Source of the DNA: Escherichia coli
GTDB lineage: Bacteria; Pseudomonadota; Gammaproteobacteria; Enterobacterales; Enterobacteriaceae
Assembly: GCF_002854065.1 (NCBI RefSeq)
Contig: NZ_CP024147.1
Reading direction: 5' to 3' (one strand)
DNA: 64,000 bases
A program made the translations under genes and the position numbers. Positions 17,597 through 21,365 of this stretch are shown piece by piece. Below the pieces are notes generated by a model, which was given only the letters and a program-made list of their open reading frames with translations, was not told the DNA's origin and searched no databases. Every line of letters begins with the position of its first letter. The first letter of the stretch is position 1.

Positions 17597-18286
17597 ATGG
17601 CGAGACGTATTCTGGTCGTAGAAGATGAAGCTCCAATTCGCGAAATGGTCTGCTTCGTGCTCGAACAAAATGGCTTTCAGCCGGTCGAAGCGGAAGATTA
17701 TGACAGTGCTGTGAATCAACTGAATGAACCCTGGCCGGATTTAATTCTTCTTGACTGGATGTTACCTGGCGGCTCCGGTATCCAGTTCATCAAACACCTC
17801 AAGCGCGAGTCGATGACCCGGGATATTCCAGTGGTGATGTTGACCGCCAGAGGGGAAGAAGAAGATCGCGTGCGCGGCCTTGAAACCGGCGCGGATGACT
17901 ATATCACCAAGCCGTTTTCGCCGAAGGAGCTGGTGGCGCGAATCAAAGCGGTAATGCGCCGTATTTCGCCAATGGCGGTGGAAGAGGTGATTGAGATGCA
18001 GGGATTAAGTCTCGACCCGACATCTCACCGGGTGATGGCGGGCGAAGAGCCGCTGGAGATGGGGCCGACAGAATTTAAACTGCTGCACTTTTTTATGACG
18101 CATCCTGAACGCGTGTACAGCCGCGAGCAGCTGTTAAACCACGTCTGGGGAACTAACGTGTATGTGGAAGACCGCACGGTCGATGTCCACATTCGTCGCC
18201 TGCGTAAAGCACTGGAGCCCGGCGGGCATGACCGCATGGTGCAGACCGTGCGTGGTACAGGATATCGTTTTTCAACCCGCTTTTAA
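17597..18286 (+). CDS. phoB: phosphate regulon response regulator PhoB
   Basis: [27 protein letters not shown]...; 229 aa. Confidence 0.97.
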
Positions 18287-18343: not shown

Positions 18344-19639
18344 GTGCTGGAACGGCTGTCGTGGAAAAGGCTGGTGCTGGAGCTGCTACTTTGCTGCCTC
18401 CCGGCTTTCATCCTGGGTGCATTTTTTGGTTACCTGCCCTGGTTTTTGCTGGCATCGGTAACGGGACTGCTTATCTGGCATTTCTGGAATTTATTGCGCC
18501 TTTCATGGTGGCTGTGGGTTGATCGTAGTATGACCCCGCCACCGGGGCGTGGTAGCTGGGAACCGCTACTATACGGCTTACACCAGATGCAGCTGCGAAA
18601 TAAAAAACGCCGCCGTGAACTGGGCAATCTGATTAAACGCTTTCGTAGCGGCGCGGAGTCGCTGCCCGACGCAGTGGTGCTGACCACGGAAGAGGGCGGT
18701 ATTTTCTGGTGTAACGGTCTGGCGCAACAGATTCTTGGTTTGCGCTGGCCGGAAGATAACGGGCAGAACATCCTTAACCTGCTGCGTTACCCGGAGTTTA
18801 CGCAATATCTGAAAACGCGTGATTTTTCTCGCCCGCTCAATCTGGTGCTCAACACCGGGCGGCATCTGGAAATTCGCGTCATGCCTTATACCCACAAACA
18901 GTTGCTGATGGTGGCGCGTGATGTCACGCAAATGCATCAACTGGAAGGGGCGCGGCGTAACTTTTTTGCCAACGTGAGCCATGAGTTACGTACGCCATTG
19001 ACCGTGTTACAGGGTTACCTGGAGATGATGGATGAGCAACCGCTGGAAGGCGCGGTACGTGAAAAAGCGTTGCACACCATGCGCGAGCAGACCCAGCGGA
19101 TGGAAGGGCTGGTGAAGCAGTTGCTGACGCTGTCGAAAATTGAAGCCGCGCCGACGCAATTGCTCAATGAAAAGGTTGATGTGCCGATGATGCTGCGCGT
19201 TGTTGAGCGCGAGGCTCAGACTCTGAGTCAGAAAAAACAGACATTTACCTTTGAGATAGACAACGGCCTCAAGGTGTCTGGCAACGAAGATCAGCTACGC
19301 AGTGCGATTTCGAACCTGGTCTATAACGCCGTGAATCATACTCCAGAAGGCACGCATATCACCGTACGCTGGCAGCGAGTGCCGCACGGTGCCGAATTTA
19401 GCGTTGAAGATAACGGACCGGGCATTGCACCGGAGCATATTCCGCGCCTGACCGAGCGTTTTTATCGCGTTGATAAAGCGCGTTCCCGGCAAACCGGCGG
19501 TAGCGGATTAGGGTTAGCGATCGTGAAACATGCGGTGAATCATCACGAAAGTCGCCTGAATATTGAGAGTACAGTAGGAAAAGGAACACGTTTCAGTTTT
19601 GTTATCCCGGAACGTTTAATTGCCAAAAACAGCGATTAA
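18344..19639 (+). CDS. phoR: phosphate regulon sensor histidine kinase PhoR
   Basis: 431 aa; H-box [13 protein letters not shown] and ATPase motifs. Confidence 0.97.
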
Positions 19640-19663
19640 TCCGCCTTTGTCATCTTTTATTGC

Positions 19664-19696
19664 CATAAGCCAGCCGATGCTGGCTTATTTTCTTTG
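19664..19696 (+). terminator. rho-independent terminator after phoR
   Basis: stem aagccagc / gctggctt followed by T-rich run. Confidence 0.5.
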
Positions 19697-20045
19697 CAGT
19701 CAAAATACGGGCGCTAGATTTTACAACGGTTGGTGATTTTTTGTTCGCATGATTAGCCATGTCTTTTTCACGGAAATAGTGTTTTATACTGGTTGGTGAT
19801 TTCTTATCGCTATATACCTCTGGTTTTTAGATCCCTCCTTGCTTTAAAACGTTATAAGCGTTTAAATTGCGCTTCAGGTGCTGTCATACTGACTGCATTA
19901 ACGCGGTAAATCGAAAAACTATTCTTCGCCGCGCCTGGTTGGGAGTATTTCCCGCTAAAATTGTTTAAATATACCGCTGTATCATCCCCAGGGATTGGCA
20001 CAAAAATTTAACGTTACAACACCACATCCACAGGCAGTATGATTT

Positions 20046-21365
20046 ATGACCCATCAATTAAGATCGCGCGATATCATCGCTCTGGGCTTTATGACATTTG
20101 CGTTGTTCGTCGGCGCAGGTAACATTATTTTCCCTCCAATGGTCGGCTTGCAGGCAGGCGAACACGTCTGGACTGCGGCATTCGGCTTCCTCATTACTGC
20201 CGTTGGCCTGCCGGTATTAACGGTAGTGGCGCTGGCAAAAGTTGGCGGCGGTGTTGACAGCCTCAGCACGCCAATCGGTAAAGTCGCTGGCGTACTGCTG
20301 GCAACGGTTTGTTACCTGGCGGTGGGGCCGCTTTTCGCTACGCCGCGTACAGCTACCGTTTCTTTTGAAGTGGGGATTGCGCCGCTGACGGGTGATTCCG
20401 CGCTGCCGCTGTTTATCTACAGCCTGGTCTATTTCGCTATCGTTATTCTGGTTTCGCTCTATCCGGGCAAGCTGCTGGATACCGTGGGCAACTTCCTTGC
20501 GCCGCTGAAAATTATCGCGCTGGTCATCCTGTCTGTTGCCGCGATTGTCTGGCCGGCGGGTTCTATCAGCACGGCGACTGAGGCTTATCAAAACGCTGCG
20601 TTTTCTAACGGCTTCGTTAACGGCTATCTGACCATGGATACGCTGGGCGCAATGGTGTTTGGTATCGTTATTGTTAACGCGGCGCGTTCTCGTGGCGTTA
20701 CCGAAGCGCGTCTGCTGACCCGTTATACCGTCTGGGCTGGCCTGATGGCGGGTGTTGGTCTGACTCTGCTGTACCTGGCGCTGTTCCGTCTGGGTTCAGA
20801 CAGCGCGTCGCTGGTCGATCAGTCTGCAAACGGCGCGGCTATTCTGCATGCTTACGTTCAGCACACCTTTGGCGGCGGCGGTAGCTTCCTGCTGGCGGCG
20901 TTAATCTTCATCGCCTGCCTGGTAACGGCAGTTGGCCTGACCTGTGCTTGTGCAGAATTCTTTGCCCAGTACGTACCGCTCTCTTATCGTACGCTGGTGT
21001 TTATCCTCGGCGGCTTCTCGATGGTGGTTTCTAACCTCGGCTTGAGCCAACTGATTCAGATCTCCGTACCGGTGCTGACCGCCATTTATCCGCCGTGTAT
21101 CGCACTGGTTGTATTAAGTTTTACACGCTCATGGTGGCATAATTCGTCCCGCGTGATTGCTCCGCCGATGTTTATCAGCCTGCTTTTTGGTATTCTCGAC
21201 GGGATCAAAGCATCTGCATTCAGCGATATCTTACCGTCCTGGGCGCAGCGTTTACCGCTGGCCGAACAAGGTCTGGCGTGGTTAATGCCAACAGTGGTGA
21301 TGGTGGTTCTGGCCATTATCTGGGATCGCGCGGCAGGTCGTCAGGTGACCTCCAGCGCTCACTAA
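20046..21365 (+). CDS. brnQ: branched-chain amino acid transporter BrnQ
   Basis: [40 protein letters not shown]... 439 aa. Confidence 0.95.

Follow-up and report, generated by a model that had tools for sequence, protein, structure and literature searches.

The two similar stretches that lie upstream of brnQ in this Escherichia coli genome are probably a lineage-specific likeness of two T-rich segments in front of the sigma-70 brnQ promoter, and not a functional pair. Their likeness is confined to Escherichia and to fast-evolving DNA upstream of that promoter, which makes the repeat an ordinary one, and as such it is of little importance.

The window, by which we mean the whole 64,000-nucleotide stretch of DNA that was analyzed, carries phoB, phoR, an intergenic region, brnQ, and proY in that order. 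The same order is found in E. coli K-12 MG1655, where there is no annotated feature between phoR and brnQ. The genes and the two copies of the repeat are placed as follows, with positions given in the window and, for the copies, also relative to the brnQ transcription start site and in MG1655 (U00096.3).

17597-18286: phoB
18344-19639: phoR
Between phoR and brnQ: the phoR-brnQ intergenic region, 406 bp
19719-19748: repeat copy 1 (TTTTACAACGGTTGGTGATTTTTTGTTCGC), -157 to -128 from the brnQ start site; 419264-419293 in MG1655
19782-19810: repeat copy 2 (TTTTATACTGGTTGGTGATTTCTTATCGC), -94 to -66 from the brnQ start site; 419327-419355 in MG1655
20046-21365, plus strand: brnQ coding sequence, 439 aa

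The segments at 19728-19748 (ggttggtgattttttgttcgc) and 19791-19810 (ggttggtgatttcttatcgc) were identical in 18 of 21 aligned columns (86%), with one gap. A repeat finder extended the match in the 5' direction to 19719-19742 and 19782-19805, where 20 of 24 positions agreed in an ungapped alignment and the start-to-start spacing was 63 bp. An earlier note on this DNA had described a direct repeat at 19728-19748 and 19791-19810 with about 85% identity and a spacing of roughly 60 bp, and each of these particulars was confirmed. The exact 12-base core common to both copies, GGTTGGTGATTT, occurred in the 64-kb window only at these two positions; when up to one mismatch was allowed, there were four occurrences in the 64 kb, two of them being the pair itself.

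Against shuffles of its own intergenic region the repeat is unusual. Of 1000 dinucleotide-shuffled versions of the 406-bp region, 10 contained an exact direct repeat of at least 12 bases and 2 a 20/24 match. A window-wide test was then made with 314 half-overlapping 406-bp windows tiled over the real 64-kb sequence, and this returned matches of at least 20/24 at 4 distinct loci and exact repeats of at least 12 bases at approximately 9 loci. Because repeats of equal strength are found elsewhere in the 64 kb, the phoR-brnQ pair is no more than a scan of that size yields. Two further 20/24 direct repeats in the window lay at about 45034 and 45097, with a spacing of 63 bp, and at about 891 and 1023. 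The pair resembles the chance short direct repeats of bacterial intergenic DNA in that its 20/24 match with 12 exact bases is equaled at 4 to 9 other loci of the same 64 kb, and in that it evolves fast and is without conservation beyond the genus. It differs from them in being somewhat better than expected for its own 406-bp region, and in being the majority state in E. coli.

Recognized classes of repeat and RNA were also considered. Tandem Repeats Finder, run with a minimum score of 30, gave no rows for the region, and the right-hand parts of the 63-bp units are dissimilar, which rules out a tandem repeat. A dispersed repeat family (REP/BIME, ERIC, or similar) was likewise ruled out, as a 60-mer around each copy was found at one place per E. 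coli genome rather than in many copies. Rfam covariance models searched against 19300-20400 with E values up to 10 yielded nothing relevant, the sole match being a chance-level tmRNA fragment at 19617-19668 (7.5 bits, E = 1.5), and a known RNA family was ruled out on these grounds.

The intergenic region belongs to the core sequence of E. coli and was found at 95% identity or better in 5424 of 5426 complete E. coli genomes, and no annotated feature lay under it among the E. coli matches listed. Most E. coli have the perfect 12-mer in copy 1, with the 60-mer that holds it present exactly in 3684 E. coli genomes. These counts bear out the view of the earlier note that the repeat is backbone sequence, and the gene map and the MG1655 annotation agree with its placing of the repeat between phoR and brnQ with brnQ downstream. 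The core of copy 1 is polymorphic, reading GATTGG in K-12 (344 genomes) and GGCTGG in strain 4114; copy 2 was invariant in eight aligned E. coli genomes, and its 60-mer was exact in 4475 of 5423. In K-12, with which the note had proposed a comparison, the repeat is present with GATTGG in the core of copy 1, and the copies agree at 19 rather than 20 of 24 positions.

That the perfect 12-mer might be a rare allele of this strain was ruled out, since the base that is rare, the C at 19714, lies outside the repeat. The position is T in other E. coli, and the exact 60-mer at 19704-19763 was present in only 4 of 5426 complete genomes. The whole intergenic region was 100% identical in strain TB06052, which came from fresh water. 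A separate observation concerns Escherichia sp. MOD1-EC7003, in which a GC-rich, REP-like sequence (GCCGGATAAGGCGTTCACGCCGCATCCGGCA) lies just 3' of phoR in place of the usual pre-terminator sequence, at about 2075-2130 of its locus (alignment columns 16-70).

For comparison beyond E. coli, the brnQ locus was taken from 80 Enterobacteriaceae species, no Salmonella locus being among the 80, and the intergenic regions were aligned. Read in the 24-nt register, the two copies agreed with each other at 17 positions in four other Escherichia species, at 8-14 in Citrobacter, and at a mean of 8.3 in the 74 non-Escherichia species. This last value lies within the background range, as the means over all sequences with the second segment taken at other offsets were 5.2-10.0. 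Mean column conservation of the copy 1 core, GGTTGGTGA, was 0.66 and that of the copy 2 core 0.48, which is among the lowest values of the region; TTTTTTGTTCGC, with which copy 1 ends on the right, scored 0.93, the ATGATTAGCCATG that follows scored 0.84, and the block around the promoter at 19822-19876 scored 0.90. The left two-thirds of copy 1 varies between species, and its right third, TTTTTTGTTCGC, is the start of a deeply conserved block, while copy 2 lies within the least conserved spacer, the length of which is fixed. Across the six Escherichia lineages, variable positions made up 9 of the 24 in the cores versus 46 of the 350 in the region (hypergeometric P = 0.0015). Judged from these alignments, no part of the intergenic region evolves faster within Escherichia than the cores, which is the opposite of what would be expected for contact sites of a shared regulator.

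The promoter of brnQ could be placed from published data. In the PhoB-regulon RNA-seq of Fitzgerald et al., phoR changed by 6.8 log2 units (roughly 100-fold) and brnQ by 0.4, with P = 0.19 (PMC10294691 supplement). Since brnQ RNA does not track the PhoB-dependent change in phoR, the phoR terminator is efficient; and since brnQ barely changes with phoR, it is transcribed without a read-through feed and from its own promoter. Kim et al. 2012 reported one brnQ start site with a 170-nt 5' UTR and gave the 51 bases that end at the start (PMC3415461, supplementary file 2). This 51-mer is identical to window positions 19826-19876, and because it ends at 19876, the brnQ start is the A at that position. 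The orthologous brnQ start of Klebsiella pneumoniae was mapped behind the same sequence (PMC3415461 supplement).

19665-19695, plus strand: phoR intrinsic terminator, with a 10-bp stem, a 4-nt loop, and a T-run
19839-19868, plus strand: brnQ core promoter, with putative -35 TTGCTT at 19839-19844 and putative -10 TTAAAT/TAAATT at 19862-19868
19876, plus strand: brnQ transcription start (A), by mapping of the 51-mer from the PMC3415461 supplement

The hexamers are our own assignment, made from the sequence that precedes the mapped start. By their distances from this start, both copies lie upstream of the core promoter and are not part of it. A consensus scan of 19500-20150 detected no promoter-like site anywhere in that interval and no hexamer pair in either copy, and the brnQ promoter at 19839-19868 is unrelated in sequence to both.

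These results bear on the suggestion of the earlier note that the repeat is a remnant of promoter duplication, and on the wider idea that the copies descend from an old local duplication, either of the promoter or of a 63-bp unit, and have since diverged. Two similar segments do stand in the same orientation 63 bp apart, and a gapped alignment of the 63-bp units scored above 1997 of 2000 shuffles. That score, however, derives wholly from the 30-35 nt already noted, and the remaining 28-29 nt of each unit aligned no better than shuffled sequence, with 1479 of 2000 shuffles scoring as high; the empty Tandem Repeats Finder result points the same way. A promoter-like hexamer pair (-35 and -10 elements at 16-18 bp) is absent from both copies, the single mapped brnQ start site is 3' of both, as is the single orthologous start in K. 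pneumoniae, and the mapped promoter at 19839-19876 is dissimilar to the repeat, so that the suggested promoter remnant was not upheld. The sequences at the two positions are unrelated to each other in other genera, where the total length is unchanged; a duplication would therefore need to predate the family and be without trace outside Escherichia. We regard descent from a duplication as very improbable.

The earlier note had favored paired binding sites for a regulator, with Lrp as its example. In the main rival to our reading, the copies would be Escherichia-specific paired sites for an oligomeric protein of low specificity (such as Lrp, Fis, or H-NS), bound at about -143 and -80 on the same side of the helix, from where it would modulate the brnQ promoter. 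The position upstream of the mapped promoter is appropriate for this, and the 63-bp spacing amounts to 6.0 helical turns at about 10.5 bp per turn, which would put both sites on the same face of the DNA, although this is weak evidence, because an unrelated 20/24 repeat elsewhere in the window is also spaced by 63 bp. Both copies hold a G-N3-TTT motif of very low information, which we take to be of the kind present at Lrp sites in pap. An Lrp consensus match with two mismatches at 19777-19791 overlaps the 5' flank of copy 2, copy 1 fits the degenerate Fis consensus with one mismatch at 19732-19746, and the repeat is kept at 17/24 or better across all six Escherichia lineages, well above background.

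Other results count against such sites. The cores are the most variable sequence within the genus and fall to background similarity outside it. The window and its shuffles were scanned with the Lrp consensus YAGHAWATTWTDCTR, which Cui et al. reportedly derived by SELEX in 1995. There were 98 matches in the window versus 84 ± 10 in the shuffles, and at up to three mismatches none covered either core, the nearest being that at 19777-19791. Consensus strings for CRP, IHF, PhoB, Nac, TyrR, ArgR, NtrC, sigma-54, and Fis disclosed nothing common to both copies. The Fis-like match is in copy 1 only, copy 2 not fitting, and matches of this kind turn up about every 1.4 kb. In the accessible literature, we found no report of Lrp control of E. 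coli brnQ, and the Kroner preprint on Lrp makes no mention of brnQ.

Known arrays offer a further measure. Upstream of Lrp-controlled promoters such as those of ilvIH and pap, Lrp sites are arrayed about 30 bp apart. The present pair shares with them A/T-rich sites upstream of a sigma-70 promoter, an amino-acid-related gene, and spacing by whole turns (63 bp here). It differs in consisting of one pair at 63 bp rather than an array at about 30 bp, in having no core that fits YAGHAWATTWTDCTR, and in being not conserved in orthologous promoters. The upstream activating region of rrnB P1 has Fis sites near -71, -102, and -143, and the T-rich copies, centered at about -80 and -143, recall these positions, with copy 1 within one mismatch of the Fis consensus; in contrast, copy 2 falls outside a consensus so degenerate that the 406-bp region alone gives three matches. 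The likeness to the Lrp and Fis upstream arrays is limited to position and phasing and fails on both consensus and conservation.

The proposal of paired regulator sites was thus not sustained, with copy-to-copy identity outside Escherichia at background, the cores the most variable part, and the Lrp consensus absent from them. The earlier note had itself named a lack of conservation of the repeats in related species as evidence against its reading, and this is what the 74 non-Escherichia species gave; the scan with Lrp and other regulators that it had advised gave nothing common to both copies. The Lrp reading is unsupported rather than disproved. We consider paired sites for one of these proteins unlikely, but an Escherichia-specific regulatory pair of some kind is possible in view of the locally unusual match, the six-turn spacing, the retention of at least 17/24 in all six lineages, and the constancy of copy 2 among E. 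coli genomes.

Elsewhere in the window, an AT-rich ORF of 489 aa (24975-26444) follows a 605-aa ORF (22970-24787) that is presumably malZ. Matches resembling the Lrp consensus cluster at 25123-25839 in the 489-aa ORF, possibly an accessory gene, which near 25.82-25.90 kb also has a coding repeat offset by 24 nt (GCGAAAAAAACTGCGGAAAAAACT...).

The alignments that told against the repeat also revealed sequence upstream of brnQ that is under strong constraint, in the following elements.

19737-19769 (-139 to -107): block A (TTTTTTGTTCGCATGATTAGCCATGTCTTTTTC), a conserved upstream block beginning within the right half of copy 1
19822-19876: promoter block, invariant, with a palindrome
19847-19869: AAACGTTATAAGCGTTTAAATTG, 23 nt between the -35 and -10 elements, a candidate operator

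The 23-nt AAACGTTATAAGCGTTTAAATTG was identical in 66 of the 81 sequences examined, which represent approximately 24 genera. Within it lies the palindrome AAACGTT-ATA-AGCGTTT, of which Buttiauxella and Cedecea have a perfect form, AAACGCT-ATA-AGCGTTT. Conservation of this stretch far exceeds the needs of a core promoter, and the palindrome looks like an operator candidate. A full-text literature search with the sequences themselves returned unrelated eukaryotic primers only and no bacterial paper, and no regulator for this arrangement was found in the available literature.

The distance from block A to the promoter block, measured from TTGTTCGCATGAT to AAACGTTATAAGCG, was exactly 106 bp in 62 of 64 species. 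That from the promoter to the ribosome-binding region varied between species, from 166 to 175 bp. The sequence between block A and the promoter palindrome, which holds copy 2, is the most variable part of the region, with its length fixed. We suspect that the fixed 106-bp distance reflects a helical-phase constraint.

Fixed length would also be explained if a small protein were translated from the ATG at 19749 (MISHVFF...), with copy 1 as its ribosome-binding region and copy 2 as coding sequence. In 25 species this frame stays open for 32 codons, and in 9 for 38, ending at a TAA inside the -35 region, and there are no indels across the 106 bp in 62 species. Yet it is open in only 34 of about 70 species, with in-frame stops at many different codons in the others. 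All six Escherichia sequences have a stop, a TGA inside the copy 2 core (19797-19799 in E. coli), and several species have ACT, ACG, or ATT instead of the start codon. Codon-position periodicity is lacking, with 1.27, 1.26, and 1.25 bits at positions 1, 2, and 3; no CDS is annotated in MG1655 or among the E. coli matches listed, and no start site has been mapped upstream of the ATG at 19749. We find a small protein here barely credible, and the ORF at 19749-19847 (32 aa, open in Citrobacter) was ruled out as a gene by its stops, lost starts, and lack of codon periodicity. With the frame broken and no periodicity in it, the constraint would appear to act on DNA geometry, about 10 helical turns, and not on a protein.

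A more elaborate arrangement would take the whole region from -140 to the brnQ start as one module of fixed geometry, with protein or proteins bound to block A and to the palindrome at 19847-19863, 106 bp apart, in about 20 genera. Escherichia would then have gained a second GGTGATTT-type contact in the spacer, and the repeat would represent two in-phase contacts of one oligomer. We give this arrangement little credence.

Constraint extends into the 5' UTR of brnQ, where one element stands out just before the start codon.

20017-20035, plus strand: CA-rich invariant stretch and Shine-Dalgarno region (ACAACACCACATCCACAGG)

The sRNA GcvB represses brnQ in Salmonella through its R1 seed (PMC9299463). 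From its sequence, ACAACACCACATCCACAGG is likely the GcvB pairing site. RNAalifold applied to the 170-nt 5' UTR of 26 species returned no consensus structure. The loop UAAAUCGAAAAACUAUUCUUCG, which is highly conserved, is closed by a 5-bp helix of 19902-19906 with 19929-19933; pairing in this helix reached 83% over the 26 species, 6 of which show a compensatory change from U-A to C-G. An inverted repeat of 12 nt, 92% complementary, joins 19884-19895, at the start of the 5' UTR, with 20031-20042 in the Shine-Dalgarno and start-codon region, and inspection by eye of one Citrobacter sequence revealed no compensatory changes in this pairing.

A genomic-SELEX peak for RpoN holoenzyme and NtrC has been reported between phoR and brnQ, at 418,832 on the map in old coordinates, or about 20063 in the window (PMC8743547). 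In the brnQ 5' UTR, approximately 60 bp from this peak, a sigma-54-like sequence, TGGCAC-AAAAA-TTTAA, with a perfect -24 element, is present at 19996-20011 in Escherichia only.

Taking the copies as a lineage-specific likeness, as we prefer to do, copy 1 would straddle the edge of block A, its GGTTGGTGA part being free to vary and its TTTTTTGTTCGC part constrained, and copy 2 would lie in a spacer of fixed length and drifting sequence. Drift in the Escherichia lineage would have brought the variable cores to 8-10 identical bases of 12, and to 12 of 12 in most E. coli. The pair caught the eye because the cores are 12/12 in this strain. Transcription of brnQ is probably controlled jointly by block A and the promoter block, which lie exactly 106 bp (about 10 helical turns) from each other; this would be through bound protein or proteins on one helix face, and the cores of the repeat would not be the conserved contacts.

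The pair serves as a caution, since a 12-base exact match in T-rich DNA upstream of a promoter falls within the chance yield of a 64-kb scan, and conservation analysis can reverse an attractive paired-operator reading. Of more use than the repeat is the by-product of its study, an unannotated and strongly constrained brnQ control region. Its constrained elements are the promoter palindrome, block A at a strictly fixed distance from it, and a conserved block in the 5' UTR, and the gene they precede encodes a major carrier of branched-chain amino acids and threonine, which is of interest for production strains.
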